From the NCBI GenBank assembly GCA_043734065.1, contig JAYTFV010000224.1:1-47884 (forward strand): a DNA stretch of 47,884 nucleotides, in the 5' to 3' direction. The stretch comes from Planctomycetota bacterium (lineage in GTDB: Bacteria > Planctomycetota > Planctomycetia > Planctomycetales > Planctomycetaceae). The notes beneath the pieces were generated by a model that saw only the letters and a program-made list of their open reading frames with translations, was not told the DNA's origin and did no database searches. Shown one piece after another: positions 1 through 20,400 of the stretch (position 1 is its first letter; every line of letters starts with the position of its first letter). A program made the translations under genes and the position numbers.

Positions 1-128
1 GGCATGAATTCCTCAGTGACCGCCCCGAAGGCTCTGGCCTTCGGCTGAGTTCTCACGCCCCAGGAAATTGATTCACTTCCCGTACGCTGCCGTGTATCAT
101 CCCCTGCACCAATCACAGGGGAACAGAC

Positions 129-593
129 ATGAGCCACGCTGCGTTGATTGTCGATTACCTCGCCGGTCCGGTGGCCCTGCGGCAGGCCATTCAAGGAATG
201 ACTCCCGCCCAGCTCAACTCCGCCCCGATCCCCGGCAAGTGGTCGACGCGGCAGGTGATCTGCCACATCGCCGACTTCGAGCCAGTCTACGCCGACCGCA
301 TCAAGCGCGTCATTGCCGAGGACGAGCCGCTGCTGCTGAGCGGCGACCCCGACCAGTTCGCCGCCAAGCTGGCCTATGACCAGCGCGACCTGGAGACGGA
401 ACTGCAGCTGATCGAGGTCGTCCGAAGGCACCTCGCTGGCATCCTGCGGACGCTGCCCGTCAAGACGTTTCAGCGAGCGGGGAAGCATTCTCACGATGGT
501 CTGCTGACGATCGAGACGCTGCTGACCCGCATCACCGGCCACATCCCGCATCACGTGAAGACGATCGCCGAGAAGCGGGCGGCGCTGGGGTGA
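129..593 (+). CDS. DinB-family (DinB_2-like) helical-bundle protein
   Basis: The ORF starts at ATG 129 and encodes 154 aa. The His-containing pattern 'VICHIADFE' ... '[12 protein letters not shown]' and the size are typical of the DinB/YfiT-like superfamily. Codon usage matches the high-GC flanks. Confidence 0.7.
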
Positions 594-601
594 GGTGAGC
601 G

Positions 602-1222
602 CTACCCAAAGAGCGAATAGAAAATCTCCTCGAAAGGATTTAATCCGTACTGACTGCTTTGCCAGGCGAACAGGAAGTATCCCAGCAGTACCGCTCCATT
701 GATGATGGCCGCCTTGCGAGCCGTCTGGCGAAGTGAGGGACGAACTGGTTCTTTCGAAATCAAATACACTCCCAGCAGGTACGTGGAGTAAAACTCCAGC
801 GGCAGGAATATCAGCCCCACAATCGAGGTCACAAAAGCCCGCTTGATCCGCTGCTCCCGCTGATTCAAAGGAGCGTCCTTCTCGGCGTCCAACTCGGGGC
901 TGACTGGAGGGGTGGACTCGGACTCTGCGGGCGGTTCCTCGCCCTCTTCCATCGTTGTCTCCGGGGGAGTGTCCCACTCATCCCCGATCTCATCCGTCAT
1001 GGGCGACTTCTGCTCCAGGACTTTGATCGCCGCATCCACATCCGACGAGTCGACCTGCAGCTGCACCCCTCGGAAGGCGTTTGCGAACTCCAGCCAGTTC
1101 ATGGTGACGGAGTGTTCGTTTTGCAGGATCGAGCGAATCCCCGCCTCCTCCAGATAAATCCGCGCGAGGCGGGCTTCTACCGGATCCCAGTATGTCCCAA
1201 TGGTGACCAGCGACTGGCTCAT
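602..1222 (-). CDS. DUF2007-like N-terminal domain protein with acidic linker and C-terminal transmembrane helices
   Basis: The start codon is ATG (cat at 1220-1222). The N-terminus 'VTIGTYWDPVEARLARIYLEEAGIRSILQNEH' resembles the DUF2007 putative signal-transducing fold. An E/P/T-rich linker follows, then two hydrophobic stretches (IVGLIFLPLEFYSTYLLGVYLI and AAIINGAVLLGYFLFAW). Confidence 0.6.
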   Translation of the reverse strand: MSQSLVTIGTYWDPVEARLARIYLEEAGIRSILQNEHSVTMNWLEFANAFRGVQLQVDSSDVDAAIKVLEQKSPMTDEIGDEWDTPPETTMEEGEEPPAESESTPPVSPELDAEKDAPLNQREQRIKRAFVTSIVGLIFLPLEFYSTYLLGVYLISKEPVRPSLRQTARKAAIINGAVLLGYFLFAWQSSQYGLNPFEEIFYSLFG

Positions 1223-1449
1223 GCGTGTCTCCTCGGGGGTGTTTCTTTGGTCACCTCGACCAGCCCAGCAGACTCGGTCGCAGGGGAACAGTTGGCAACA
1301 GGTGACATCCTCGTCGGAAGAGCAAGGCCGATCAAGGATGTACCGGGGAAAGAAGCGGGTGGGGGTGCATTCGCCAGCCAGACTTCACGGGGCTGCGACT
1401 CACAACGCCGGACTAGGCCACCTCGCCTCCCCCTCGCTGCCACACTTCT

Positions 1450-1776
1450 TCAGAATTGCGGCTTAATGCATCGATCCCAGACCTCTCGCACTTGAATCGC
1501 GTCGGCGTTGGACAGTGTTCCCAGCGGGTGCCGCAGCAACGACTGTTCCAAACAATCCAGCCGGGCCAGGCGGACGGTGGACGGCACCCGCAACCCAGCT
1601 GCCGCCCACTCTTGCAGCAACACATCGGACTGCGAACGCGGAGCAGCGGATGTCACTGCCGCGACGACCGCATCAGCCCCCTCGATCCACAGCACCAGAA
1701 TTGGCCGCCGCTTGGATGCGGCCCCGTTCGTAAATGCAATGTCGGCCACCCACAAATCACCGGCCCGGACAGTCAT
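1450..1776 (-). CDS. PemK/MazF-family type II toxin (mRNA interferase-like)
   Basis: 'VRAGDLWVADIAFTNGAASKRRPILVLW...VVAAVTS...GLRVPSTVRLARLDCLEQSLL' fits the MazF/PemK SH3-like barrel pattern (GD-W-V-D ... RP-LVL ... TS). I chose the internal ATG at 1774-1776; the tracked ORF extends to 1821. The gene overlaps the upstream small ORF by 20 nt. Confidence 0.7.
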   Translation of the reverse strand: MTVRAGDLWVADIAFTNGAASKRRPILVLWIEGADAVVAAVTSAAPRSQSDVLLQEWAAAGLRVPSTVRLARLDCLEQSLLRHPLGTLSNADAIQVREVWDRCIKPQF

Positions 1777-1978
1777 CGTACAGCCCCTCATCGGCGGGTG
1801 AGAAACTGTCCAGGAAAGCACTGTGATCTCGCATCGGCCCGGAGGCAGGCTGTGTCGTTTGAATGATGATCGTCCACCGGCCTTCCCCCACGCTGTCGAT
1901 CATGGCTGGGGGAAGTGACAGTTTCTCCCCGTGTCCCAATTCGATTTGATAGATCAGACGTTCCAATTGAGCTTGCAT
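1757..1978 (-). CDS. putative antitoxin (possibly AbrB/SpoVT-like) of the MazF-like toxin
   Basis: This 73-aa ORF starts at ATG 1976-1978 (tracked ORF to 2026), lies immediately upstream of the toxin and overlaps it. 'KLSLPPAMIDSVGEGRWTIIIQ' resembles a swapped-hairpin AbrB-like strand pair, and the tail is acidic. The call rests mainly on position. Confidence 0.5.
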   Translation of the reverse strand: MQAQLERLIYQIELGHGEKLSLPPAMIDSVGEGRWTIIIQTTQPASGPMRDHSAFLDSFSPADEGLYDDCPGR

Positions 1979-2032
1979 CGTAATTCGTCCTCTGTCGTGG
2001 GAACGGTCCCCCTTGCACGGGTCCATTCTCGC

Positions 2033-2707
2033 TCACAACGCCGGGTCTGCCAACCCCGCATCGGCGAAACCCTTGGCCCGGAGCAGGCAACTGTCGCAAT
2101 GCCCGCACGGGACGCCGCGCGGGCCAGGGTCGTAGCAACTGTGAGTCAGGCTATAGTCGACACCGTGCGACATACCGAGGGCGATGATCTGAGCCTTGGT
2201 GAGGTGGATCAGCGGCGTGTGAACGCGGAAGCGAGTGCCCTCGACTCCGGCCTTGGTGGCGAGGTTCGCGAGCTGTTCGAAGGCAGTGATGAACTCGGGA
2301 CGGCAGTCGGGGTAGCCGCTGTAGTCGACGGCATTGACGCCCAGGAAGAGATCGTGCGCTCCGAGGATCTCCGCCCAGCCGAGAGCCACGGACAGAAAGA
2401 TCGTGTTGCGGGCCGGGACATAAGTGATCGGAATCCCGGTCGACATTTGCGACTCGTCGCGGTCTTTTGGCACGGCGATGTCCGAGGTCAGCGCCGAGCC
2501 GCCAAACACCCGCAGGTCGAGCGGACAGACCCGATGCTCGCAGGCCCCCAGTGCCGCGCTCACCCGCGCCGCAGCCTCCAGTTCATGGCGGTGCCGCTGC
2601 CCGTAATCAAACGACAGGGCATGACAGGCGAACCCCTGCCTCCGGGCCACCGCCAACACGGTCGCCGAATCCAGTCCGCCACTCAATAAGACCACTGCGG
2701 GCTGCAT
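2033..2707 (-). CDS. queC: 7-cyano-7-deazaguanine synthase QueC
   Basis: The N-terminal PP-loop '[14 protein letters not shown]', then 'SFDYGQRH', and the C-terminal Zn cluster '[10 protein letters not shown]' are diagnostic of QueC. The protein is 224 aa. Confidence 0.95.
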
Positions 2708-2949
2708 GCCACGATTCCGCTTCGAATTTCGTCAAGAGGTGCTGTGGTGTTCCCCGAGAGACATCGACGCCGGGATTTTAGAGGCTTGTCTCGACAAATG
2801 CACCGCGTCACGAGTGGGGGGACGAGAGCCAATGGGAAATGAGCGAGAGCCTCGCGACCGACCTCTGGAATCTGTGAACGGAACCATTGAGCGGGTTCTG
2901 CCGACTGGTTGTTTCCCGATCACCACAAGCCCGGAGGGATGGCCGGAAA

Positions 2950-3690
2950 AATGTTGGGCCAACCCTGTACACAGCGACCAACGGGAGCGCCGCCCTGGGT
3001 CATGGGTTCCGATTTCGATCCAGCCGTGTCAGGGCGAAACAACCCGCCGTGGCGCGCCGTTGTGTCGCCCCTACAGGGCTTGAACTCCTCTCGTCCTTCA
3101 AACCCAAGGCGGCGCTTCGCGGCATTCGCCGCTACGCTCTGCTCTGGGCTGATCTGTCGCTGCCCCTTCGGGGCGTTTCGGAGGTGCCCATCAAAACCCC
3201 GGCGACAGATTCGCATCCACCGAGACCATGACGCCACTCAACCATCCCCAGTGCCGCACGCCCTGAAAGGGCAGCCACAAACCAGCCCAGGGCACAGCGA
3301 CCGAAGGGAGCGCCGCCCTGGGTCACGATCCCCATCGAGGCCGCAGCCCTGTAAGGGCGAAACAACACGCCGTGGTACGACCTTGTGCCGCCTTTTCAGG
3401 GCTTGGGCTCCTCTCGTATTCAAACCCAGCGCGGCGCTGCGCGGCTCACGCCGCTACGCTCTGCCCTGGGCTGATTTGTCACTGCCCCTTCGGGGCGATT
3501 CGGACATGGTCTCCGAAACTCCGGCTGTCCGATCCGCATCCACCGAGACCATAACGTGACTCGATCATACCAGACGCCCTGAAAGGGCCAAACAAACCAG
3601 CCCAGGGCACAGCGACCATCGGGAGCGCCGCTCTGGGTTATGGGTTCCAATATGACCCCAGCCCTGTAAGGGCGAAACAACCCGCCGAAG
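2950..3690. repeat. intergenic tandem repeat with a ~315-323 bp unit, about 2.3 copies, full of short GC hairpins
   Basis: The anchor 'acagcgacc..gggagcgccgccctgggt' occurs at 2971, 3294 and 3609. The anchor 'gccccttcggggc' occurs at 3162 and 3484. Each unit carries the hairpins gccctgaaagggc, gccctgtaagggc and cccagggc...gccctggg. Confidence 0.85.
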
Positions 3691-3916
3691 CAATGCCCAG
3701 TACAGTCCAGAGATGGCTTGAGTCCGTCTAACCCGTCAACAAACAGAGGGCGAATTCCCGTCATCGTGTGCTACTGCTCTGTGGGCAGTGCTTCTTGGAA
3801 ATCGGCATTGCCGGTGGATCAGCACGGATCACAGAGCCGTGGCACACGCAACCACTTCGATCGGGCCACCCCGCCCCCAGAGTAATATTGACCTGTTCAC
3901 GCCGCCGCATACTCGT

Positions 3917-4702
3917 CTACGCAAACGGCGGTGAGTTGACGACTCTGATGAGCCTTTCAACATATGCGAATGCCTGTGCTTGAGTGGCTTCGAATGTGTT
4001 GGCGTGAGCAAAGGAATTGCGCTCATCAAGAAGCACCTGAAGTTGACGATGCGTTTTAGTCGAGAAATCACACAACGATCCTGTTGCATCGCGACATATA
4101 TCGAGAACAAAGACTTCTTTTTCTTTGTAGAAATCCTGGTAATCGCCCACAATCCTGCCACCGTCTTTTTGGGTGCGATTCTGAAGCAGCGAATTGAAGT
4201 CTTGTAGACGACTGGGGTCACGGAATATCCATTCGCGAATCATGTCGAATCCAAAACACCAGGCCATTACGATGGCTGGACGATAGGACTTGGCACGAAG
4301 GCACTGAATAGTGTCCTGTATCAATGCCGCTTGTGTATCCGTCATGAGTCCTTTCTCAGCCTTCTGATTCAGGAAGACCAAGTCTGCAGGTATCGTTTTT
4401 CGATCAGAAACAATGATTGAAAAGGAACCGATATCATCGTATGCAACAGATTTCGCAGGCTCCAACAAGCCTTGAAACTGCGTCATATTCAGCTCGCTCA
4501 ATTTAGCGTTGCACTGACAGGATTGGGCCAGCTTCTCATACGGGCCAAAGGCAGTCAGAGTCCGGTCAAGACCGCAAGATGCCAACATCTCCGCCAACTC
4601 GCGTGCAAGCTCATAACGTCGGATAGCATTCACCTCATGCTTCAAGAGGCAAAAGAACTCACCGATGCGAGCTAGCACTTTAGGATTGTCAAATCGGGCC
4701 AT
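3917..4702 (-). CDS. hypothetical protein with a C-terminal HEPN-like domain (R-x4-H motif 'ERNSFAHAN'); possible Abi/defence-type RNase
   Basis: The ORF is 261 aa with ATG at 4700-4702. Its GC is clearly lower than the flanks: lines 4021 and 4081 count 45% and 38%. The helical C-terminal half ends with 'LLDERNSFAHAN', matching the HEPN Rx4-6H signature. I do not recognise the N-terminal ~125 aa. Confidence 0.6.
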   Translation of the reverse strand: MARFDNPKVLARIGEFFCLLKHEVNAIRRYELARELAEMLASCGLDRTLTAFGPYEKLAQSCQCNAKLSELNMTQFQGLLEPAKSVAYDDIGSFSIIVSDRKTIPADLVFLNQKAEKGLMTDTQAALIQDTIQCLRAKSYRPAIVMAWCFGFDMIREWIFRDPSRLQDFNSLLQNRTQKDGGRIVGDYQDFYKEKEVFVLDICRDATGSLCDFSTKTHRQLQVLLDERNSFAHANTFEATQAQAFAYVERLIRVVNSPPFA

Positions 4703-4736
4703 ACTCGTCCTCTGCGATCTATTGCTTTGCTCAAAA

Positions 4737-7700
4737 CTACTCCGCCTTGAACTCCAGCGTCAGTAGCAAATCCCCGGTCTCCACCGCATCACCTGGCTTC
4801 ACGCGGACATCGCGGACGGTGCCGTCGCGGTCGGCGTAGATGGAGGTCTCCATCTTCATGGCTTCCAGGGTCAGAAGCTTCTGGCCCTTGGTCACGGCCT
4901 CACCGGACTTCACGGGGGCGAGGACGACCATGCCGGGCATGGTGGCGCCGATTTCGGCGGGGTCATCGGGGTCGGCTTTGGCGCGGGCGGCTTGTTGGGG
5001 GGCGGCAGAGGCGTCGGTGATCGTCACATCGCGGGGTTGGCCGTTGAGTTCGAACGAGACGGTTCTCGTGCCATCGGGATGCGGCTGGCCGACGTTCAGG
5101 AACTTGATGAACAGGGTCTTGCCCGACTCGATGTCGAGCGTGATCTCGTCGCCGGGCTGCATGCCGTAGAAGAAGTTCGGCGTGGGGAGGACGCTGGTGT
5201 CGGAGAACTTGCGGCGGTGGGCGGCGTAGCCTTCGTAGACCTTGTTGTAGAGCAGGTACGACAACGTGTGCCGCTTGAGCCACACTTCCTCGACCGGCTC
5301 GCCCGCCAGCAGTTCGACGATCTTCTTGCGGGCGGCTTCGAAGTCGGCATCGGGCAGTTCGGCCCCCGGTCGTCCGGTGAACGGCTTCCGATCGCCGAGG
5401 ATGCGCTTCTGCACTTGCAGCGGGAATCCGCCCGGCGGCTGGCCCATCGCTCCACTGATGAGGTCGATGACCCCCTCGGGGAACGACAGCTCGCGCGTGC
5501 CGTTGAGCACCTCATCGCACGTGAGATTGTTGGCCACCATGAACAGGGCCATGTCCCCCACCGACTTCGAGGTCGGCGTCACCTTGACGATGTCGCCGAA
5601 CATCTGGTTCACTTCGGCATACAGGCGGCAGACCTCGCTCCAACGGTCTTCGAGGCCGAGCGACCGAGCCTGCTCAAACAGGTTCGTGTACTGTCCACCC
5701 GGCATCTCGTGGTTGTAGAGATCCGCAGTCCCGGCCAGCGGATCACTCTCGAACGCGGTGTAGAACTGCCGCACCGACCGCCAGTATTCGGCGACCTCGT
5801 CGAGCGTCCGCGTATCGAGGCCGGGGTCGCGCGGCTGGAACCGCAGCGACTCGCTGAGCGTGTTCAGGTTCGGCTGGGAGGTGCCGCCCGAGAGCGGAGC
5901 CATCGCACAGTCAACGATGTCGACGCCGACATCGGCGGCCCGCAGATAGGACGCCGCCTGAATCCCATTGGTGTCATGCGTATGGAAGTGAATCGGGATG
6001 CCGATCTCCTGCTTCAGCGTCTTCACGAGCTTGGCAGCTGCCTCGGGTTTGCACAGCCCGGCCATGTCCTTGATGGCCAGAATATGAGCCCCCATCCGTT
6101 CCAGCTCCTTGGCCAGATTCACGTAATACTTGAGGTCGTACTTTGTGCGATTCGGGTTGGTGATATCGCCGGTGTAGCAGATGGCCGCCTCGCAGATGCC
6201 GCCCGCGTTGCAGACCGCGTCCATCGCCACCTGCATGTTCGGCACCCAGTTCAGGCAGTCAAACACGCGGAACACATCGTTCCCGCACTGGTACGCTTCC
6301 TTCACGAACTCGCGCACGATGTTGTCGGGGTAGTTCGTGTAGCCGACGGCGTTCGAGGCCCGCAGCAGCATCTGAAACAGGATGTTCGGACAGGCTTTGC
6401 GCATCTCGGCCAGCCGGTCCCACGGGCACTCCTTCAGGAACCGCATCGTCGTATCGAATGTCGCCCCACCCCACATCTCCATCGAGAAGAGCTGGGGGAG
6501 TTTCTCGGCATAGATCGGCGCGATCTGCAGCAGATCGAACGTCCGGACGCGTGTCGCGAGCAGTGACTGATGCGCATCACGGAACGTGGTGTCAGTGATG
6601 AGCAGCTGCTTCTGATCGAGAATCCACTTCGAGAGTCCCTTGGCCCCCTGATCGAGGAAGACCTGGCGTGCTCCAGTGGGCAGCGGGTCTTTGGTGTCGA
6701 CGGTGCGGTTCGATTTGGGAATCGGCGCGGGCAGGATGCGCTTTCCGACGGGTCGCCCCTTCACCAGGGCATTCTTATTGACGATCACATCGCCGAGGTA
6801 CGACAGGATTTTGGTCGCCCGATCGCGCCGCTTGGGGATCGTCCGCAGCTCGGGGGTGTCGTCAATAAAGCGAGTCGTGCAGAGTCCCGAGATAAACTGC
6901 GGGTGAGCGAGCAGATTGATGAGGAACGGAATGTTGGTCTTCACGCCGCGCACACGGAACTCGGCCAGACTCCGTTCCATCCGCGAGATCGCATCGACGA
7001 ACCGTCGTCCGCGAGCGGTCACCTTGACCATCAACGAGTCATAGTAGGGCGTGACGACGGCACCCGAGAAGGCGGAACCCGCATCCAGCCGGACCCCCAT
7101 GCCACCCGTCGACCGGTAGTGAGCAATGCGTCCGTAGTCGGGCGTGAAGTTGTTCTCCGGATCTTCGGTCGTGACCCGGCACTGGATCGCAAAGCCGTTG
7201 GTCTTGATGACGCTTTGCGAGGTCATGCCGATTTCGGGATCGTCGAGGCGGACCCCTTGCGCGATCAGAATCTGCGACTTCACAATGTCGAACCCGGTGA
7301 CTTCCTCCGTGACGGTGTGTTCGACCTGGATGCGGGGGTTGACCTCAATGAAGAAGTATTGGTTCGTGTCGGCATCGACGAGGAACTCCACCGTGCCAGC
7401 GTTCTCGTAACCGACTTGTTTGCCGATGTTCACAGCTGCTTGGCAGAGAGCCTCGCGGACCTTCGGATCAAGGTTCGGTGCCGGGGCCAGCTCGACCACC
7501 TTCTGGTGCCGCCGCTGGACCGAGCAGTCACGCTCGAATAGATGAACCAGATTCCCGTGCTTGTCGCCGAGCAGTTGGACTTCGATATGCCGGGCGCGGC
7601 GGATGTACTTCTCGATGAAGATGTCGGGGCTGCCGAAGGCGGTGAGCGATTCGCGGCGGGCGGTTTCGTAAGACGCGATGAACTGGTCTTCGCTCTCGAC

Positions 7701-8219
7701 GACGCGCATGCCCCGTCCACCGCCGCCGTGTGCCGCCTTGAGGATCACCGGGTAGCCGAGCTTCTTGGCGGCGATGACTCCTTCGTCCGCGTCTTTGAGG
7801 GCGTCGTCAGTGCCGCTGAGAATCGGAGCCTTCGCCAGGATCGCGATCTTGCGGGCGGCTGTCTTGTCACCGAGAGCTTCGAGGTGCTCAACCTTCGGCC
7901 CGACGAAAATGATTCCGGCATCGGCACAGGCCTGCGCGAACGCGGGCTTTTCGGACAGGAACCCGTACCCCGGATGGATCGCATCGGCCCCGGCCAGTTT
8001 CGCAGCGGCAATGATCCCCGGAATGTTCAGATACGATTTAATCGGCTCGCCAGGAACGCCGATCTGGTACGCCTCATCCGCCTTAAAGCGATGCAGCGCA
8101 TACCGGTCCTCATAGGCGTACACCGCCACCGTCCGAATCCCCAATTCATGGGCCGAGCGGAACACACGGATCGCAATTTCGGACCGGTTGGCAACGAGCA
8201 GCTTGGTGATGGCGGGCAT
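4737..8219 (-). CDS. pyc: pyruvate carboxylase (single-chain biotin carboxylase + carboxyltransferase + biotinyl domain)
   Basis: The protein is 1160 aa. It has an N-terminal ATP-grasp biotin carboxylase ('KLLVANRSEIAIRVFR', 'GGGGRGMRVV'). The central HMGL-like carboxyltransferase carries 'TTFRDAHQSLLATR' and 'HFHTHDT'. The C-terminal biotin attachment site is 'LEAMKME'. Confidence 0.97.
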   Translation of the reverse strand: MPAITKLLVANRSEIAIRVFRSAHELGIRTVAVYAYEDRYALHRFKADEAYQIGVPGEPIKSYLNIPGIIAAAKLAGADAIHPGYGFLSEKPAFAQACADAGIIFVGPKVEHLEALGDKTAARKIAILAKAPILSGTDDALKDADEGVIAAKKLGYPVILKAAHGGGGRGMRVVESEDQFIASYETARRESLTAFGSPDIFIEKYIRRARHIEVQLLGDKHGNLVHLFERDCSVQRRHQKVVELAPAPNLDPKVREALCQAAVNIGKQVGYENAGTVEFLVDADTNQYFFIEVNPRIQVEHTVTEEVTGFDIVKSQILIAQGVRLDDPEIGMTSQSVIKTNGFAIQCRVTTEDPENNFTPDYGRIAHYRSTGGMGVRLDAGSAFSGAVVTPYYDSLMVKVTARGRRFVDAISRMERSLAEFRVRGVKTNIPFLINLLAHPQFISGLCTTRFIDDTPELRTIPKRRDRATKILSYLGDVIVNKNALVKGRPVGKRILPAPIPKSNRTVDTKDPLPTGARQVFLDQGAKGLSKWILDQKQLLITDTTFRDAHQSLLATRVRTFDLLQIAPIYAEKLPQLFSMEMWGGATFDTTMRFLKECPWDRLAEMRKACPNILFQMLLRASNAVGYTNYPDNIVREFVKEAYQCGNDVFRVFDCLNWVPNMQVAMDAVCNAGGICEAAICYTGDITNPNRTKYDLKYYVNLAKELERMGAHILAIKDMAGLCKPEAAAKLVKTLKQEIGIPIHFHTHDTNGIQAASYLRAADVGVDIVDCAMAPLSGGTSQPNLNTLSESLRFQPRDPGLDTRTLDEVAEYWRSVRQFYTAFESDPLAGTADLYNHEMPGGQYTNLFEQARSLGLEDRWSEVCRLYAEVNQMFGDIVKVTPTSKSVGDMALFMVANNLTCDEVLNGTRELSFPEGVIDLISGAMGQPPGGFPLQVQKRILGDRKPFTGRPGAELPDADFEAARKKIVELLAGEPVEEVWLKRHTLSYLLYNKVYEGYAAHRRKFSDTSVLPTPNFFYGMQPGDEITLDIESGKTLFIKFLNVGQPHPDGTRTVSFELNGQPRDVTITDASAAPQQAARAKADPDDPAEIGATMPGMVVLAPVKSGEAVTKGQKLLTLEAMKMETSIYADRDGTVRDVRVKPGDAVETGDLLLTLEFKAE

Positions 8220-8346
8220 GTTGGATGGTCAGGTGGGAGTCAGCGCGGGGCGGTGTCCTCAAAGAAGCATGAGGACTGCGCATTGTGAGGCGTAGCGCCC
8301 ATAGGTGGCAAGCCAGTTGCGGACTCGTCATCAGACTATGGAGAAA

Positions 8347-8409
8347 TTCGGGCTTGGGGCTTGGGGCTTCGGGCTTCGGGCTTCGGGCTTCGATATTCGA
8401 TATTCGAAT
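8347..8409. repeat. heptanucleotide tandem array, 9 consecutive 7-nt units
   Basis: The read-out is ttcgggc ttggggc ttggggc ttcgggc ttcgggc ttcgggc ttcgata ttcgata ttcgaat. The array lies in the 205-nt spacer between the giant-gene stop (8425) and the pyc start (8219). Confidence 0.9.
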
Positions 8410-8424
8410 TTCTCTTTGCCAGCC

Positions 8425-11400
8425 TTACCCCCTGTCTCCCGCTCCCCCCGTCACGATCGAAGCCAGCGACTCCTTGTCTTCCTCGGACCTCTCCTCCTCG
8501 AACCGGTCCATCACCGGCAGGGGGTCGAACGACATCCAGGTCGGCATCACCGAGATCATTGTCGCCAGCAGCGAGCCGCCCCGGATCAACCAGATGACGT
8601 AGCCGACCGTCAGACCCCCGGTGACAGCTGTGGTCGTGCCCACAACGATGTCTTCGACGAGAGCCGAGGAGTGCTGCTGGCTCTCCAGTTGATCGCGGAA
8701 GGAGTTGAGATCATTCCACATCGTCTGGTTTTCGAGGATCGCGTGCGTCAGGTTATGCAGCGAATCGGGAATCAGGGTCGCGATCACGGGAATCAGATCC
8801 GGCATCCGATACAAAGTCTCCCTCATGGTGGATCGCGGCGCGAGGAAGCCACGTGATCCACTGACGAGATCGCCGATACGGGTACTGCGTACAAAGAAGT
8901 CGTCCCCAGTCTCGCTCGTCGACGGTGGGACAGCTTCGTCATGGGCTTGACTGGAATAGACTCCGATCAATCCACCCGTGGATGCAATGGCCTGTCGCGT
9001 GACACCGCTGGAAGCAGTCGTGACAGTGGAGACGACAGGTGTGACCGCGGTATTATTGCCACTGTCGACTCCCGCATTGGTGGTCGTGGTGGTCGTGGTG
9101 CCAGTACCGGAATTGCCATTCAGGCTGCCACCACTCGGAGCGAGGAGTCCCACGGTCAGCGACACCGTGGCCACGCCGCTCGATTCCAATCCATCATTCA
9201 AGACATACGTGAACGAGTCCATGCCGAAGTACAGGTGATCGGCGACATAGGTGAACGTCCCATCGGCGTTGAATGTCAGCGTGCCGTGCTGCGGGCCCTG
9301 CACTATAGTGGCGGTGATCGAAACCGAATCAGAGTCGCTGTCGTTGGCGATCACTCCCGTCATCGCGACCGTCGTCAACGATTGGAATTGCGAGAGCGTA
9401 TACTGGTCATTCACAGCCACCGGCGCCACGTTGACATTGTCGATGAGGATCGTCATGTCGGCCGAGCGAGCCAGACCGGCAGTGTCCTGAACCTGGACGG
9501 TGATCGTGAACGACGACTGGGATTCGTGGGTAAAGTACGCCGCGTTGGCGACCGTGATGTCTCCCGAATTCGGATCGATCGCGAACCGGCCGCCCGTATT
9601 GCCTGCCACGAATGAGTAGGTCAACACATCACCCGCATCCACATCGCTGGCCGCGACGATGCCGACCAGGTTACCGACCGACGACCACTCGTGGATGTGG
9701 TAGGTGCCCGCGAGGATGACCGGTTGCTCGTTCACGTCACTCAGCGAGACGCTGACTGTCTGCTGATTGGTCAGGCCCGCCCGGTCGGCCACCTGAGCGA
9801 TGAGCGAGAATGTGCTGTGCGCTTCGAAGTCGAGAGCCGCGGTGTTCGCGACCGTGATCGCACCGGTGACCGCGTCGATAGCGAACGCTCCCCCGGTGTT
9901 ACCGCTCACGAGTGTGAACGTCAGTTGATCGCCCGCGTCGACATCGCTGGCACTGAGCGTGCCGATGAGCGTGCCGTTGGCGCTGTTCTCGGGCAGACCG
10001 AATGCACCTCCGACCAGGACTGGAGCCTCATTCAGATCGACCAGCGAGATCATGAACCTCCGGTCCAGTGTCAGTCCGCCGGAGTCAGTGACGCGGGCGA
10101 TGATCGTGTGATTGCTGGCGGTCTCGAAGTCGAGACTCCCGTTGACGGTGATCTGGCCGGAGAGCGAATCGACGACGAACAGGCCCCCTGCATCATCGAC
10201 GAGTGAGTAGGTCGCCGTGTCACCGGTATCGACATCGGTCGACGACAACTGGCCGACCGGGGTGCCGAGCAGGCTGTTCTCGTTGACGCTGGCGCTGCTC
10301 AGATTCAGCGAGGTCGGCGTCTCATTGAGGCCGTTGAGATCGATTGTGATCGTGGCCGACTGCGGAGCCCCCACACTGTCGGTGACTGAGACGGCGAGCA
10401 AGTACTGCGGTGTCGTCTCGAAGTCGAGCGCTGCCGGATTCAGCACCGTGATCTGGCCCGTCACAGGGTCGATGGCGAACGCCCCGTTTGTGTTGCCTGC
10501 GTCGATGGCATACGTCAACACCGCACCGGTATCCACGTCACTGGCCATGACCGCGCCAACGACCGTTCCCACGGGGCTGTTCTCGTTGACGTTGAACCTC
10601 TGCGGAGCGATCACCGGCAGGTCGTTCACCGGCGTGATCGTCACATCGAAGGCCGTCTGCGTCGTCGCGGTCCCATCGTCAACGGTCAGCGTGATCGTGA
10701 CCGGACCGCCGTTCTGGTTCAGAGCCGGAGTGATCGTCACCGTGCGATTCGCTCCCGTACCACCGAGGACGATGTTCCCATTCGGAATCAGCGCTGCGTC
10801 GCTCGATGTCGCTGTGACCACGAGGCCCGTGGCCGCTGTCTCGGAATCACCAATCGTGAACACGAGCGGCCCGAGGGTGGTGTCCTCGTTCACCGTCTGG
10901 TTGACCACCGCGCTGATCGTCGGGACATCGTTGACCGGAGTGAACGTCACCGCCACGCTGCTCGGCCCGTTGGACAGGCTGCCATCGCTCACGGTCAGGT
11001 CATACGCCGGTGCGAGGTTCCCGTTGTCGTGAACGAACTGCACGAGCCCGGCGATGATGTCGGCCTGCGTGAACGAGGTGATCGCCGTGCCTGTAGCAGC
11101 CACGAACTCGAACTGCCCATGACTCACATTGCTGGCGGTGTAGGTCGACTGGTCGGGAGTGTTGTCCGGGTCGGCCGTCGACAAGTTCGTGAGACTCAGA
11201 ACGACCGTCCCTCCCTCGCTGATCGTCAGCGTATTGACACTGATCGCGGGGGCGTCATTGACATTCGTGAAGGTCACAACCGCATCCGATGGCCCCACGT
11301 TCGAGCTGCCGTCACTCAGTGTCAGCGAATAGATCGGAGCGGCCTCGCCACCGTCATGGACGAACTGCACGCGGGCGTTGTTGATATCGTCCTGCGTGAA

Positions 11401-14400
11401 CGACGTGATCGTCGACCCCGGTGCGGCGACGAATTCGAACTGCCCACCCGACAAGCCACTCACGGTGTAGCTCAACTGCGAGTCCGAGTTATCGGGATCG
11501 GTCGCGTTGATTTGAGCGTTCGTCAGGACCACCGTGCCGCCCTCAGAAATCGTGAGCGAGTTCGCGGTGAAGCTCGGGGCATCGTTGACGTTCGTGAACG
11601 TGCCGATCGTCACCGTGCTGGGACCGTCGGACAGGCTGCCATCACTGACCGTGAGTTGATACGTGGGAGCCGACTCACCTCCGTCGTGAACGAACTGGAC
11701 AGATCCAGATTTGATGTCCGCATGGGTAAACGTCGTGATCGCCGCACCGGGCGTGGCGACCCACTCAAACTGACCGCCGCTGAGATTGCTGACCGTATAC
11801 GTCAGGTTCGCGGAGGCCGTATCAGGATCGCTGGTACTGATGTTCGCGGCACCGAGCAAGACCGTCCCGCCTTCAGTGATGGACAATGTGTTCGTCGCAA
11901 TGACTGGAGCATCGTTGACTGCCGTGACCGTGATGTTGGCGGTTTCGCTGGCCGTACTGAACGCCGTGCTGCCTCCGTTGGCGCTGACATCCACCTGGGT
12001 TCCCGGCGTGCCGCTAGTTTGATCCCACGCGCGGAAGGTCACTGAGGCGGTCGTCCCATCGAGGCCATTGGGGACGAATCGCAACCGGTCAGTATCGCGC
12101 AGCAGCAGAGCGGAATTGTCGGATGCGCTGCCCACGGCGAACCAGTTGGTCCCGTTGATCGTGTACTCCCAGGTGCCGTTGCCGCTGGTGAGCCCCGTGA
12201 CGGCAAAGCCCTCGAAGGCAAACGCAGAATCGGGGTCGGTCACGCGGTCGCCTCCCGCGCTCATGATGATCGACCCGATCGCATCGCCGCTGTTGGTGAG
12301 GTTGTCCTCCGTGATCGTCACGAGCGTCATCGTGCCGCTGTTGTCGAGGACCGGCGCATCGTTGACCGCGACGACGTTTAAGGTGTTCTGCCCGTTGTTG
12401 CTGGTGCCGCCATCGCCGTCGGTCACCACGATGCGAATCGATCGCGCTGTCGTCGAGGGACTGTCCGAGACGTTCGAGAACTGCACGTTCCTGGCCAGAG
12501 CCTGGACAGCTGAGACCGTCGCATTGGAGTTGAATGTCACCACCAGAGGCGTGGCCCCGCTGGTGCCGCCGGTCCAGGTGCCGATGGCGGTGCCTTGAAA
12601 GGTGACATTCGCCCCGCTGATCCCGATCTGCCCCGCGCCGGTGCCTTGATTTTGGATCGTGATGCGATCGTCGACAGAACCATTGAGCGGGAGCGACGCC
12701 GTCAATGTGCCCGTGTCGAAGTTGGCCGAGTCGACATCCGTGACGCGGGCAGCCGCATCGAACAATACGGGCGTGCCATTCTCGATGAAGGTCACAGCGC
12801 CACTAGGCAGGGAGATGACCGGTGCATCATTGACGGGCGTGATGTTGAGCTGAATGGCATACCCGGACGTGTTCACTCCGCCGTTGCTCGTGCCGCCCGA
12901 GTCGACCACACTGAACGAGAAGAACGATGGCCCGCCGTTGCGATCGGTTGCCGGGCGGAACTGCATGCCCTGCAATTCGGTCAGCGTGTAGGTGCCCACC
13001 GTGACGGGCGTCGTCCCGTCTGCCAGGTAGACGACTCCGAAGAACGTCGGGTGCGGGATTGTGGTGACTTGGTAGGTCAGCGTCTGGCCTGCTTCATCCG
13101 CTCCTCCACCCGGAGAGAACACGAGGCTCCCCAATCCCAGCGAGGTCAGACCGGAGTCTTCCAACACCGTCAGGTTATTGACACTGCCCGCCATCAGCAC
13201 GGGCGCATCGTTGACCGCCATCACGGTGGTGCTGAGCGACACCAGGCTGGAGCTGATGGCCGAGGTTCCGCCGGGGCTGGAGGTGTCGACCAGCACGCGA
13301 GTCGCTCCGCTGGTGAATCCACCCGCATAGCTGTCGTCGAGGCCCCGCAGCGACAGGATTGTCGGAGAGCCATTGAAATCGGCGGCGGGCACAAACCGCA
13401 CTCGCGTGCTGACATCCAGCGCCAGCCCATTCACGCCGACGCTAACAATATCGAACCAGTTGGATCCGCTGTCCGTCGAGTATTGCCAGACCCCTTCCGA
13501 GATCGGGGCAGTGTTGGAGGTGACGGCGATCCCCGACAGGCTCGCCCCCGCGTCGGGATCGCTGAAGCTGCCGGAGAACAGGCTACCGATGGTGGCCCCG
13601 GCAGGCTGAGTGGTGTCTTCCAGAACGGCCGTGAGAGAGCCCGCGCTGATTGTCGGAGCGTCGTTCACGGGCGTGACGTGCAAGTAGACCGTCGCCGTCG
13701 TCGAGTTGAGACTGCCGTCGTTGACGTAATAAGTGAAGGTGTCGACGCCGGTGAAGTTTGCAGCAGGCGTGTAGGTGAACGAGCCATCAGCGTTCAACGT
13801 AAATGCAAGAGCGTGGGCCGGTCCGGTATCGAGAACCGCAGTCAACGAGTCGCCATCCACATCGAAGTCATTGAGCAACACGCCCGGCGCAGCGACAGTG
13901 AGTGTCGTGTCCTCCAGCAGCTTATCGCCCGCCCACGCTGGCTGTCGGCCCGCGACGCCACCGCCGAGAGTTCCCTGATTGAGGGCCGCGGAGCTGTCGA
14001 AGGCCGTGCTGCCGGAGTTTTCTTCGAACCGCCAATTGCCCACGAGATTGGCCTCGGAAGAGCCGGTCAGCGTCGCGTTCATATTGCCCGCAATCTCAGC
14101 CCCCGTGCGAGCAATGTTCCAGACGCGAACGTCGGTGATCTGACCATCAAAATACTGGCCTGAGGGGTTGTTCAACCGGCCGCCAATCGTCAGTTGGTTC
14201 AGCGCGGGATAGACATCACCGATCGTGCCTGACCCCGAGTAGACATTGACACTGACGCCGTTGACATAGGTTGTCACAACCCCGGCGTCATAGGTCAAAG
14301 CGACATGCGTCCAGACTCCGTTGTCCACAAATTGCCCCGTGCCTTGCCAGCTCCAGCCCGGAGTCGTATTGGCCACGGCCCAATAGATTTCGCCGTTGGG

Positions 14401-17400
14401 GAAGATCGAGAGTTCATATTCACCTTCCTTGTTGAGGATCATGCGATTGGAGTTCGCGGACGGTTCGGGATTGATCCAGGCTTCCAGCGTGAACGAGTTC
14501 GTCATGTGCAGGGAGGGAGAGTCAGCGATCGAGACGCTGTCATCGACCCCGTCAAAATCGAGTGCCAGGCGATCATCGGCAGCTCGGGGAGCATTGTTGA
14601 CGGCTGCGACTGACAGACTGGTGCCGTTCGTGCCGACACTGAAGGCGGTGCTGGCTCCAGTGGATGTCACATCGGCTGGACTGCCTGCTGTCCCGGTTGT
14701 CTGGTCCCACGCCTTGTAGTTGAGCAGTCCCGAATTGCCGTTGAAGTTGGCATTCGGGACGAAGCGAATCGCTGCGGTCGCATCCGCCGGGAGCAGGAGC
14801 GCTGCGGTCGTCGAAGGAGTCCCCACAGCGAGCCAGGTGGTCCCGTTGAGGGTGTACTCCCAGGTGCCGTTTGTCGTGGGAACCGAGATGATCGCCACAC
14901 CCTTCAAGGCACCGGCATCCGCATCGGTCACTTCCGTATCGACCAGCTGCGACACCAGCGTCCCACTGTTCGTGACATCATCTTCATTGATCGAATTCAA
15001 GACCGAGGAGGCGACGAGGACCGGGGCGGAATTGGCTGCTGTCAGCGCGAAGTTGGCAGCGAACTCCGAGGTGCTGCCGTAGGCCAGGAAGTCGCTGATG
15101 CCGACCTGAGCAGAGGTTTCGATGCGGGTGGCCGTGGCAGTGACCGAGTCACCAGCGACCAGTGAGACGCCCGTAAGCGCCACTGCCGAAAAAGTCGCAT
15201 CACCACTGGCGTTGGTCGTGACGTTGGTCGAGCCGAGATAGATGCGACCTTCGCCGTTGGTGGCGTCCTGCGTGCCCGCCGGGTTGCCGTAGAACTCAAT
15301 GCGGTATTGAGTGCTCAGCCCATCGGTATTGAGCGAGCCACTGACTGTGAGGTTGGTCCCGTTCAGGGCCGCCGAGGTGATGACCGGGTAGTTCTGCAGT
15401 CCGTTCGCACCAGTGTCGACATCGTTCACATCGTTGGCGGTGACACCGTTGTCATGCAGATCGATGGCCAGATCGCCATTGTTGCGAAAGATGTTGCCGA
15501 GGATCGCGTTCCCGGACCCGGCACTCGAAGCGAAGGCGATTCCGTCCTGGGTATTGTTGGCGATCACATTGCCTTCGCCCACACCCGTCCCTCCGATCAG
15601 GTTGTGGTCAGAGCCAGCTCCCGTGATGCCGATCCCTTGCAGAGCATTCCCGAGTCCCGCCGCACCCAGCGAGTTGGTCCCGAGGAAGTTCCCCTGGATC
15701 GTGTTTTTTGCCGATCCGGTCAGGTAGATGCCATAGTTGGTTGAACCACCGACCGTGTTGCCCGTGATGGTGTTGCCGTCGGTCGAGAGATAGATGCCAG
15801 TTCCCCCGAGGATGGCCATCTGGGTGGCATTGAGGCCGACGGTGTTCCCCTGAATGGTGTTTCCGGCTCCGGTGCTACTCAAGTTGATCCCCCACTGGCC
15901 ATTGGCAGCCACCAGGTTGTCCTGGATCGTCACTCCGCCCGCTCCGAAGTTGACCTCGATCCCGTCGAACGTATTGCCCAGGGTCTGCAACCCGTCCTTG
16001 TCGGTCCCCACGTAGTTCCCCTGAACTGTGGCAGAGACGCCGGTGCCCGTGACATAGACACCGCGGAGGCTGTTGCCGGAGATGACGTTGCCAGCGCCGA
16101 CGCTACTTCCGCCGATCGTGTTCCCGGTCGCCGAGACATTCACCCCGTTGGCCGAGTTCCCAAGGTTGATCTCGCCCGTCAGATCAGTCCCGATGTAGTT
16201 CCCCTCGACAACGTTTCCGGTGGTTCCCGTCCCCTGAATGGAGACGCCATCGCCCTGGTTCCCGGAGATGACATTGCGGGCCGAGGCCGTCGTTCCTCCA
16301 ATGGTGTTGTCGTGGGCTCCGCTGCCCAGGCTGACACCCGATCCAGCGTTGCCGATGATCAGCGTGCCGGATGGATCGGTGCCGATCAGGTTGCCTTGGA
16401 CCACGTTGCCCGTGGCGTTGGAGCCGCTCAGAACCAGGCCAGTGCCAGCGTTGCCAGAGATCATGTTGCCCGCGCCCGCCGCCGTGCCGCCGATCGTGTT
16501 GTTGGAGGAGTCGGCCATGATGAGGCCCGCCCCGCTGTTGGGCACCGCGAATGTCCCGGTGGGATCCAGGCCGATCCAGTTACCCTCGACGAGGGTATCC
16601 GTCGTTCCGCTGGCAAACAGGTCGATGCCATAGGTATTGCCGGAGATCACATTTCGCTCGCTGGCGGTCGTGCCTCCGATGATGTTGTGGGGCGAGTCAT
16701 AGACGAGCATGCCGAACGTGCCGCCTAGCGCCGCCGATCCGCTGGCGTTCGTGCCGATGATGTTGCCTCGCACCAGCGTGTCGGACGTGCCTCCGTTGAG
16801 AAAGATGTTCTGGTTCGTGTTGCCCGCGATCACGTTGCCCGCCCCGGTGGCGGAATAGCCGAGCGTGGTGCCGCTGACATTGCTGATCTGCACGCCCACA
16901 CTGTTGGCCAGCGCAGTTGACCCACTGGCGTTGAGGCCGATGGTGTTGCCCTGGATCGCGTTGCCCGTGGCGGTGGCGTCGTAGACTTTGATGCCGCCCC
17001 CCGTGTTCCCGCTGATCAGATTGCCCTGGGCGAGGCTGCCGCCGATCGTGTTGTTTTGGGACGTGCCGTGAATCGTGATGCCCGAGGCATTGGCCAGCGC
17101 GGCATTTCCCGAAGCATCGGTCCCGATGTCATTCGCGACGACCGTGTTATTGCTGGAGTTGTTGATCTCGACTCCCGACCCCGCATTCCCGGAGATCACG
17201 TTTCGCGCCCCCGCCACTGAGCCACCGATCGTGTTGTTCGCCGCGCCGCCAGTGATGAATACGCCGGTCGACCCGTTGGCGAGCGCCGCGCTGCCTCCGA
17301 CATTGGTGCCGATGAAGTTGCCCTCAATTACGTTGCCGGTCGCCGTGGCACCATCGATTTCGATGCCATAGGCCGTATTGCCCGAGATGAGGTTGCGGGC

Positions 17401-20400
17401 CGCGACCGTCGTTCCGCCGATCGTATTGTTCGCGCTGCTGACATACACGCCGACCATGTTTCCCAGTGCGGCGGTACCGGCGGCATTGGTGCCAATCGAG
17501 TTGCCCTGCACCACGTTGCCAGTGGGAGCGGTGCCATCGAGGATGATGCCTTCGTAGGTACTGGCTGCGACCACGTTCCCCGCGCCCGCCGCCGTGCCAC
17601 CGATGGTGTTGCCGTCGGCTCCGTTAGTGACGATCACCCCGTGATGATTCGCCAGCGCTGCGCTCCCCGTGACGCTCGTCCCGAGGAAGTTGCCCTCGAT
17701 CACGTTGCCAGTCGTCCCGGCACCATCCAGGATGATCCCCGACGCCCCCAGGTGAACTCCCATTTGCCCCGAGATCAGGTTGCGGTCCGCAGCTGTGGTG
17801 CCGCCGATCACGTTTCCACTGCTGCCGCCAGTGACGCTCACCCCGTACCAGGCATTCCCGTAAGCGGTGGTCCCCGTCACGTCGGTGCCCAGATAGTTTC
17901 CAGCGATGAGGTTGTTGTCCGAGTTGTTCAGATCAATGCCGCTGCCGTCGAAGCGGTTGATGACCAGCCCACGAATCGTGCTGCCACTGGCCCCCGAGTT
18001 GAGCCGCAAGCCCTCCGCTCCGGCCCCGGCGTTCCCCCCGTTCAGCTCAATGATCGGCGTGCCCGCGAAATCGGCGTCGGTCGTGCCGTCGATGATCACG
18101 GCATCGGTGAGGGTGGGTAGCCCGCCCGCCGAAACGACGATCGTGTGCGCCCCGCCGACCAGCGGCGCGGCGATGTTGAATTCAATCGTGTCGGTCCCCG
18201 CCGTGGCGTTCGCGGCCAGGATCGCTTCGCGCAGGCTGATCTTGCCGTCGGCTCCCTTGTTGGCGGAGAGGGCCGCGATGCTCGACGTGTCGCCGTCCGC
18301 AGCATCACTGGTCGTGTCGACGGTGACATCGTGCGTGATGGGGATCGGGGACAACAGTGCAATCGCGTCATACTCTTCGCCACTCGCTGTGAGCCCGATG
18401 TCCGAACCCTGCACCAGCAATGCAGCCGAAGCCGAACTGGTTCCCGTGCCGGTCGCGGTGACCGTGAGCGAGAAGATGTCGAATTTCGTGACGGCCAGGT
18501 TGTTCACACCCACGGAATCGGACGCGCTCAGCGAGATCAGCAATTGCCCGGCCGTGAGTGACACGCCTCCCAATGTCGTGTTGGACTGGATCAGTTCCAA
18601 TCCGTAAATCTGCGAGCCGAACCCAATGCCCGCGCTCTGGCCATCAATGAGTTCGGTGCGGGTTCCGATAGTCGTTCCGGGCCCCACATCGGTGACGTGA
18701 TAGAGGCTGACATCGCTACGGTAGGCCGCATTCGCATCCGTCAGCAGAAAGTCCCCCGCGTTCAAGGTCACGCCGCCCACGACCGTGGACGTTTCGACCA
18801 GGGCGAAGTCGCGAGTCCCGCTGCCCCCCATCGGGTTTTGCAGCAGGACGGAGAATGTTCCGCTGCTGTAGTCGCCCGCCGTCGTCGGTCGGAACAGGAT
18901 GATGTCGTCGATTGACACCGCCACGCCGCCCAGGGTTTCATTGGTAGCCGTGCTCAACAGCAGGTCGCCCGGATTCAACGTCACGGCATGGGCGCTGCCC
19001 ACGGTCACGGACCGCGAGACATAATGGAAGCCGTTCAAGTTCACGAAACCGTCGGCGGCAAATGTGTTGAGGTCGAATTCCGTCTTGAAGAAGGTGCCCG
19101 CCGTTATGCCGGGTTCGAAGCTCAGGTTCGGATCGCCGATTTGCACGATCGTGCCCGAGTTCCACGTCAGGCCACCGGCCGCTCCATTGTTGGGACTGGA
19201 GATCCACAGGCCCGTGTTACCACGGACCGAGACCGTGGCGGAAAACTCCGAGGTGTTATTGCCGGAATCGGTCGCGGTGGCCGAGAGGAACTCGCCCGCC
19301 GCAACGCTGCTAGTCAGCGTGGTGTTGATCGCAGCGTTGCCGGAGCCGTCAGTCGTCGCATTCACAAAGCCGAGGTACGTCTGCCCTTGACCATAGCCGG
19401 TGGCGTCGACGGTCGGGGAGGAGAAGAACTCGATGCGAAATGTGCTCGACGCCGTGCTATTCAGCGAGCCGGTGATCGTCGTGTTGCCGCCGGACGAAGC
19501 GGCACTCATCAGCACCGGGAAGTTCTGCAAGTTGTTCGGGCCGCTGTCGCCATCACCCGAGTCGTTGGCGGTGACCTGGTCATTGGCCAGGTCGATGCCG
19601 ACCTGGGTGTTGGAGTAGATCGCGTTGCCCAGGATCGGGTTGCCCGTCGTACCCGCGTTGTCGATCAGGACACCCTGCCAACTGTTGAATGCGATCCGGT
19701 TGCCCGCACCGGCTGCGGTGCCGCCGATATGATTGCTGGTCGCGCCGTTGCTGACCAGCACGCCGCGATTCAGGTTGCCGAGATTCAGCGAGCCCGCGGC
19801 GTCGGTGCCGATGAAGTTCCCCTGCACGATGTTGGAGGATGTCCCCGCGTCGGACAGGAACACGCCATTCAGGTTGCCGCCGATCACGTTCCCCGCACCG
19901 GCTGCTGTGCCTCCCACGATGTTGTCCGCTGCGCCGAGTTGGATCTTCACACCGGCGAGCGCATTGCCGATGACCCCCGTGCCCGCCGCGTTGAGGCCCA
20001 GGTAATTCCCCTGCACGAGGTTGCCGGTCGTACCCGCATCGACGAGATGGATGGCGTTGAAGTCGTTTCCGGAGATCACGTTTCGCGCGGCTGCCGTCGT
20101 GCCGCCGATCGTGTTGTTGGTGGCCCCGTTCGACAGTCGGACGCCCGTCGAGGTGTTGCCCAAGTCGGCATCGCCTGCGGCGTTCGTGCCGATGTAATTG
20201 CCCCGCACGACGTTGCCAGTCGCAGCCGCACCGTCGATGAATATGCCGTAGAGGTTGTTCCCGCTGATCACGTTGCGGTCGGCGGCTGTCGAGCCGCCGA
20301 TGATGTTGCCGCCCGACAGCACCTCGATCCCCGTTCCGGCATTGCCCAGGTCGACCGTGCCCGCCGCGTTCGTGCCGATGTAGTTCCCGGCGATGGTGTT

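Follow-up and report, generated by a model that had tools for sequence, protein, structure and literature searches.

The window considered here, the whole stretch of DNA that was analysed, comprises 47,884 nucleotides of a contig from a Planctomycetota bacterium (JAYTFV010000224.1). The gene in question is an open reading frame (ORF) of 261 amino acids (aa) plus a stop codon, which is located on the minus strand at 3917..4702, starts with ATG and is tagged with the Pfam family PF27235 (AF_1680). Upstream of it lies pyc (4737..8219, minus strand), a housekeeping gene encoding a pyruvate carboxylase of 1160 aa recognised by its Pfam domains, which forms the upstream border of the islet occupied by the ORF. 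The stop codon of pyc and the start of the ORF are separated by a spacer of 34 nt (4703..4736, minus strand) with a GAGGA sequence 5 nt before the ATG. The spacer contains nothing resembling a terminator, so that read-through from pyc into the ORF is possible. On the other side, a non-coding spacer of 229 bp (3688..3916), with a guanine-plus-cytosine (GC) content of 0.57, leads from the stop codon of the ORF to a tandem array in which a 323-bp unit is repeated 2.3 times with 79% matches over 718 bp (2970..3687); no strand is assigned to the spacer or to the array. The array is non-coding and is followed by queC.

The composition of the ORF differs strongly from that of its surroundings. Its GC content is 48.2%, 13 points lower than the 61.3% of the whole window, and its GC content at third codon positions (GC3) is 0.51 versus 0.82 in pyc. 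Of all 786-bp sliding windows, the one over the ORF is the lowest (z = -4.3), which bears out, for stretches of gene size, the original prediction that the 261-aa ORF at 3917-4702 lies in the lowest-GC stretch; a single 60-nt line outside the ORF, at 40801, is lower still (GC 0.33). The range of 38-45% that had been given for the islet applies to the lowest 60-nt lines and not to the ORF overall, within which the lines vary from 0.38 to 0.58. The borders of the islet had been correctly placed at the 3' end of pyc and at a tandem array, the figure of ~320 bp being the period of the repeat (323) and not the length of the array itself.

PF27235 is a precomputed Pfam tag, which is carried by the window protein and by all homologues listed. 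Every source name for members of the family is 'hypothetical protein', and a literature search for AF_1680, PF27235 and 'Dandelion' (the name of a solved structure discussed below) returned nothing relevant. From 1.84 billion representative proteins, homologues in 392 clusters (50% identity) were retrieved at E<=0.001. Most homologues are 250-270 aa long, and the part they have in common corresponds to query residues ~115-260. The family extends over Planctomycetota, Gemmatimonadales, Inquilinus and Ochrobactrum (Alphaproteobacteria) and Ralstonia (Betaproteobacteria), and members were also found on plasmids and on some viral contigs.

The original prediction had drawn attention to an R-N-x-x-A-H motif of the type seen in HEPN ribonucleases (RNases). 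This motif is present as R228-N-S-F-A-H233, a predicted catalytic R-x4-H located within LQVLLDERNSFAHAN of the window protein (codons at 4004..4021, minus strand). Since a bare R-x4-H arises in 20% of shuffles of the window protein (R-N-x3-H in 0.8%), the motif alone is not evidence, and conservation is needed. Conservation was scored in 144 diverse homologues that are 21-41% identical to the query. R228 and N229 were each found in 143/144 homologues and H233 in 143/143 of the rows with a residue at that position, so that the R and the H proposed to be catalytic are near-invariant. Positions away from the motif are conserved to a similar degree: W148 and an acidic residue at position 130 (E or D, helix 1) are present in 144/144 homologues, E196 in 141, R141 in 140 and an acidic residue at position 153 (D or E, helix 140-161) in 138. 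R-N-x-[F/Y]-A-H occurs in nearly all of a set of 165 family members. The window ORF is full length and retains all of the family-conserved residues. HEPN domains have been defined by an Rx4-6H motif in which the R is immediately followed by a polar residue, N, D or H (PMC3710099), and the window family has R228-N229-x3-H233.

A structure was modelled with AlphaFold2 (AF2). From the single sequence, the mean predicted local distance difference test score (pLDDT) was only 43; with an alignment of 21 sequences, an all-helical model was obtained with a mean pLDDT of 91.2 and a predicted template modelling score (pTM) of 0.64. The model consists of two domains. The N-terminal domain (aa 1-116; 4355..4702, minus strand) contains helices at 7-22, 26-42, 46-61 and 70-92, followed by a linker and a helix at 106-116. 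The C-terminal HEPN-like domain (aa 119-261; 3920..4348, minus strand), which was delimited by the model, by conservation, by the structure match described below and by hhalign, has four core helices, H1 122-136, H2 140-161, H3 215-233 and H4 241-255, and three insert helices between H2 and H3 (163-176, 188-193 and 196-205). The motif closes H3 at H233, and a loop (234-240) leads to H4. It has been described for HEPN domains that the Rx4-6H motif ends helix 3, that inserts between helices 2 and 3 are frequent, and that helix 2 carries a conserved acidic residue (PMC3710099). The acidic residue is found here as D/E153 in helix 140-161, and the predicted helix order and the placement of the motif agree with the published description, in support of the proposal that the C-terminal half is a HEPN domain; the agreement concerns the order of secondary structure only.

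Sequence similarity points in the same direction. PDB sequences were searched with a profile built for the C-terminal domain (alignment A3, 141 positions), and the best match was 9wx2, 'Dandelion-hepn' (E=0.0017, profile positions 5-116 of 141). The alignment spans helix 1 to the catalytic motif; it places the E..yR.A.VM.W block of the family opposite an E..yR.A.VM.W block of the chain, and the R-N-x-x-A-H of the family opposite R-H-L-S-A-H. When the 144 relatives were scanned one by one against Pfam, HEPN_RiboL-PSP (PF18735) was weakly matched by 46 of them at E<0.1 (best E 1.4e-4); the other weak matches were to DUF4145 (11 relatives), HEPN_MAE_28990 (1) and HEPN_Swt1 (1). Four HEPN Pfam families thus recur, with no competing fold family, and the region matched comprises the insert together with the motif helix. 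In addition, the N-terminal HEPN part of the PADLOC model PD-T7-3 was weakly matched by two relatives belonging to the main ~250-aa subgroup of the family. Conservation, helix order, the profile match to 9wx2 and the weak Pfam matches all support the original HEPN reading of the ORF, and the C-terminal domain very probably belongs to the HEPN superfamily.

The family occurs in two forms, which share this C-terminal domain and differ in the rest. The main ~250-aa subgroup comes from soil and freshwater metagenomes, from the Ochrobactrum plasmid pLM19O1 and from Ralstonia megaplasmids, and it was also found on five IMG/VR viral contigs. Its HEPN gene is accompanied by a gene for a partner protein of ~200 aa, which lies immediately upstream on the same strand and often overlaps it. 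With separate hidden Markov models (HMMs) for the partner and for the HEPN protein, the partner was counted in 72/76 loci with enough upstream sequence; examples of the two-gene operon, in the homologue loci numbered from L001, are L017 6376-7750, L018 6307-7720, L019 6393-7756, L112 5381-6747 and most of L023-L107. The ~200-aa partner gave no match in Pfam or PADLOC. The HEPN protein of the subgroup has an N-terminal domain homologous to the C-terminal domain of this partner (hhalign 95.9%, E 6e-9), so that effector and partner share a domain. Some relatives of this form stand near mobile or toxin-related genes: the one in L017 is near an integrase and a DUF4145 gene, that in L019 near a ParE/PaaA2 pair, and that on pLM19O1 near IS66, VapBC and an integrase.

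The window protein belongs to a second clade, whose members were found only in Planctomycetota (metagenome-assembled genomes, MAGs, of Planctomycetia and Pirellulales, and Aeoliella sp. SH292), with three paralogues in one MAG. The C-terminal domains of the clade and of the main subgroup are the same (hhalign 99.8%, E 3e-30), and two things set the clade apart from that subgroup, its N-terminal domain and the absence of the upstream partner. The N-terminal four-helix domain is restricted to the planctomycete clade and conserved within it, and it is unrelated to the N-terminal domain of the main subgroup (hhalign 0.3%) or to the partner (0.8%); no Pfam, NCBIfam, PADLOC or PHROGs model matched it. 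The partner HMM detected no partner in any of the 19 occurrences of the clade (0/19; window and L001-L016). The original claim of a stand-alone gene with no MNT or antitoxin partner therefore holds for the planctomycete clade and fails for the family, most of which has a dedicated partner.

Based on these results, the best explanation of the ORF as a whole, to which, together with the mechanism that follows, we assign a probability of roughly 60%, is that it encodes a two-domain, all-helical protein, with a HEPN domain carrying an intact R-N-x3-H in the C-terminal ~145 residues and a clade-specific four-helix domain in the N-terminal ~115 residues. By analogy, RNase activity and a role in defence or as a toxin may be attributed to it. 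If it behaves like characterised HEPN proteins, its HEPN domains would mediate dimerisation, and two R-x4-H motifs would then make up one metal-independent RNase site. Only a cue acting on the N-terminal domain would switch the enzyme on; once active, it would cut cellular RNA (tRNA or mRNA), leading to a growth stop in the course of an abortive infection or toxin response. It is in this sense that we infer the labels 'sensor domain' and 'abortive-infection or toxin effector' for the ORF. A more specific version of this scheme is rather doubtful at present: the N-terminal four-helix domain, not described before, may have replaced both the shared N-terminal domain and the partner, so that the clade would represent a new single-gene immune effector. 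It is tentative to the same degree that, under such a replacement, one polypeptide would both sense the trigger and control the HEPN RNase. In a bolder version, the structured tandem arrays found beside two clade members may supply an RNA regulator.

Several observations weigh against this interpretation. The window protein itself, scanned directly against Pfam, NCBIfam, PADLOC, PHROGs and PDB sequences, gave zero matches, and thus neither a HEPN Pfam family nor a PADLOC defence system. The Pfam HEPN matches of its relatives are all under the gathering cut-offs; for PF18735, the relatives scored ~13-16 bits against a cut-off of 28.4 bits. When the full two-domain model was compared by Foldseek with PDB and BFVD, nothing was found at E<0.5: the top matches were generic four-helix bundles and G protein-coupled receptor (GPCR) fusion proteins, and Csm6 (5fsh, 5yjc) and Csx1 (8y6z, 8y7f) appeared with low probability at E 1.2-1.8. 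Since a Pfam entry for it exists, the family cannot be called new, and it is experimentally uncharacterised. The planctomycete clade was absent from the viral contigs searched, and the whole family from GenBank phages. Housekeeping genes (pyc and queC) directly adjoin the ORF, which does not stand in a defence island. Finally, the gene is dispensable, as judged from reduced copies in the clade: Aeoliella sp. SH292 has a copy of 137 aa with the HEPN domain alone (L010 5956-6423), one copy is split into two reading frames (L013 6001-6560), and another matches only from profile position 46 on (L012 6001-6294). These three copies may be decaying, and split, truncated and HEPN-only copies fit a dispensable gene with fast turnover.

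The tandem array next to the ORF bears on a different account of how the protein might be controlled. Copy number of the 323-bp unit varies between populations that are otherwise ~99% identical, with 2.3 copies in the window and in L014 (11016-11733) and 3.3 copies in L015 (11016-12061). Each unit folds as two long hairpins (z = -8.05 and -7.74 against shuffles on the two strands); folding that is equal on both strands is a DNA-palindrome pattern, and folding energy does not identify a functional strand. An Rfam scan of positions 1-9000 of the window revealed no RNA family. Opposite-strand ORFs over the array (202 aa in L014, 237 aa in L015) lie wholly in repeat sequence, have no Pfam match and are suspected to be artefacts. 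A second array was found in L001, where ~9 units of 97 bp (L001 6806-7694, in the same place as L008 4515-5403) are located ~300 bp upstream of the HEPN gene; its first seven units are 100% identical and form GC-rich hairpins. The relative in L001 is also near a DDE transposase. In about 200 kb made up of the window and the clade loci, there are no large-period arrays besides those of the window and L001. These two have no sequence similarity to each other, and no tandem array was found in eight other clade loci.

From these arrays it could be argued that the ORF encodes a toxin belonging to a toxin-antitoxin-like module in which no neighbouring protein serves as antitoxin; that role could fall to a structured RNA made from the array, in the manner of type III systems, or to a factor with its gene at another place. 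RNA antitoxins are known to neutralise AbiF-type HEPN toxins (bioRxiv 10.64898/2026.02.22.705581). Both large-period arrays flank a HEPN gene, downstream in the window and upstream in L001, the window unit folds far better than its shuffles (z about -8), and the dedicated partner in 72/76 loci of the main subgroup means that some control is probably needed. In known type III systems, however, the antitoxin repeats measure only about 36 nt and immediately precede the toxin gene, whereas the window array has a 323-bp unit and is downstream of the ORF; only the 97-bp array of L001 is upstream. The two arrays are moreover unrelated, eight other clade loci are arrayless, no Rfam family was matched, and the folding is as strong on one strand as on the other, as with DNA palindromes. 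We consider this account unlikely.

Quite unlikely, too, is the suggestion that the C-terminal domain is some other helical fold with a similar motif, or a HEPN-like fold used for binding only. In its favour, all similarities to named HEPN families are under curated thresholds, the full-length fold search was not significant, and a bare R-x4-H is easily produced by chance, as described above. It is opposed by the near-invariance of R, N and H in 144 otherwise divergent sequences, by the 9wx2 profile match, which aligns both the first-helix block and the motif, and by the recurrence of four HEPN Pfam families without a competitor. A role in binding only is further opposed by the observation that HEPN domains without catalysis usually lose the motif (PMC3710099).

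The genomic context speaks for foreign origin of the gene and against a housekeeping role. Homologue genes are 5-13 GC points under their own flanks in 11/11 loci tested. Ten independent clade loci have no recurrent ORF family at a distance of up to 2.5 kb from the gene; inspection of homologue neighbourhoods thus revealed no conserved housekeeping synteny. The exact window protein was found on contigs from three other samples (L014-L016), always after pyc. The ORF is 100% identical between these contigs and the window, so that all four represent a single population and are uninformative on selection. The nearest relatives of the window pyc, 63-66% identical over the C-terminal 350 aa of the enzyme, are without the ORF and do not share the synteny; pyc is directly followed by an N6/N4 DNA methyltransferase in L108 (3435-4442) and also in L109, by a SmaI-type restriction enzyme with its methyltransferase in L110 (2030-3658), and by a biotin ligase in L111 (3594-4373). 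The differing genes in these relatives indicate that the 3' flank of pyc is a variable slot, often with defence-type cargo. The lateral acquisition suggested in the original prediction is supported both by GC and GC3 composition and by this differing cargo, and the ORF is probably foreign, accessory cargo in the variable slot downstream of pyc.

In view of this context, it is very unlikely that the ORF, instead of being a conflict gene, is co-transcribed with pyc and encodes an RNA-processing factor with a housekeeping or regulatory role. Such a role would be consistent with its position on the same strand as pyc at a distance of 34 nt, with a ribosome-binding-like site of its own, with the absence of a terminator-like site between it and pyc, and with the recurrence of the arrangement on contigs from three other samples. 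Those contigs are one population, however; no other homologue adjoins pyc, no neighbour recurs, the codon composition of the ORF is foreign, and the nearest pyc relatives lack the gene. It is just as improbable that the ORF is a decaying remnant of a former two-gene module that has lost its partner and has no current function in this genome, for although the partner is missing throughout the clade and the copies in L010, L012 and L013 are reduced, the window ORF is full length with a plausible ribosome-binding site and all family-conserved residues, and the N-terminal domain peculiar to the clade is conserved within it and was confidently modelled from the alignment.

The two-domain HEPN protein proposed here can be compared with several known systems. 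One of these is PD-T7-3 (DARNA), a HEPN tRNA anticodon nuclease for which abortive infection has been shown experimentally (bioRxiv 10.64898/2026.02.22.705581). DARNA is about 456 aa long and forms a dodecamer; the HEPN domain at its N-terminus (R117-x4-H122) cuts the anticodon loops of tRNA once single-stranded DNA (ssDNA) has activated it, and its C-terminal domain of ~300 aa is Pds5-like and binds ssDNA (bioRxiv 10.64898/2026.02.22.705581). Both proteins join a HEPN effector to another domain in a single polypeptide, which in DARNA is non-catalytic and senses the trigger. The HEPN domain is N-terminal in DARNA, however, whereas the window protein has only 261 aa, a C-terminal HEPN domain and an unrelated four-helix domain of 115 aa. 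'Dandelion' (9wxf/9wx2), with the E value of 0.0017 given above, is the nearest solved structure by sequence profile. Its PDB chain has 460 aa, is present in 12 copies and carries HEPN at the N-terminus; from length, the 12 chains and domain order, we infer that it and DARNA belong to one protein family.

RiboL-PSP-HEPN (PF18735, a relative of AbiD/AbiF-type HEPN) was the most frequent weak Pfam match and has R-N-x-x-A-H in common with the window family. Its hallmarks are a fusion to an L-PSP endoribonuclease and a ParB neighbour (PMC3710099), neither of which was seen at any locus examined. In AbiJ, HEPN is joined to interchangeable N-terminal domains, AbiJ-NTD1 to 5 (PMC3710099). The branches of AF_1680 also join one conserved C-terminal HEPN to differing N-terminal domains; however, neither AbiJ nor its N-terminal domains were matched by sequence. 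The HEPN-MNT module (HepT/MntA, a type II toxin-antitoxin system) likewise involves a small R-x4-H HEPN protein on mobile or accessory DNA, but no MNT nucleotidyltransferase gene was found beside the window gene or beside any homologue examined.

Other features of the window and of the clade loci may be mentioned. A second low-GC islet on the plus strand (37395-39271; GC about 0.52, GC3 about 0.56, similar to the ORF) encodes two proteins, an AAA_21 (AbiEii-type) ATPase with 399 aa and a DUF4276 protein with 226 aa, which match the PADLOC candidate defence system HEC-01 (HEC-01A, E 5e-143; HEC-01B, E 2e-59); besides the ORF, this region, at about 37.3-39 kb, is the sole part of the window where GC falls below 0.53 over the length of a gene. 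On the minus strand, a PemK/MazF-like toxin (Pfam E 7e-8) is preceded by a small overlapping ORF (73 aa in L014), and the two, at 1450-2026, probably form a type II toxin-antitoxin pair; the PemK/MazF-like gene is ~2 kb from the HEPN gene, past queC. Just upstream of pyc (8425-21603, minus strand) is a giant ORF of 4392 aa with DUF4347, Laminin_G_3 and many cadherin-like and Big_9 repeats, which is probably a surface adhesin. In L004 (2372-7821), a clade member stands beside genes for baeRF (bacterial eRF1-like), erythromycin-esterase-like, phosphoribosyltransferase and HD-domain proteins, with an integrase 7 kb off; such surroundings could be those of a conflict system.

HEPN RNases recur as effectors in bacterial immunity and toxin systems, and a HEPN effector with interchangeable N-terminal domains is a well-known theme. 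The most useful new point is the two-form structure of the AF_1680 family. The two-gene form and the solo form, set against each other, offer a natural experiment on how HEPN nucleases are restrained. The family as a whole gains a testable function, with R228 and H233 as predicted catalytic residues. For the annotation of the genome, a hypothetical protein becomes a probable accessory defence or toxin gene, and the 3' flank of pyc becomes a slot for variable cargo.

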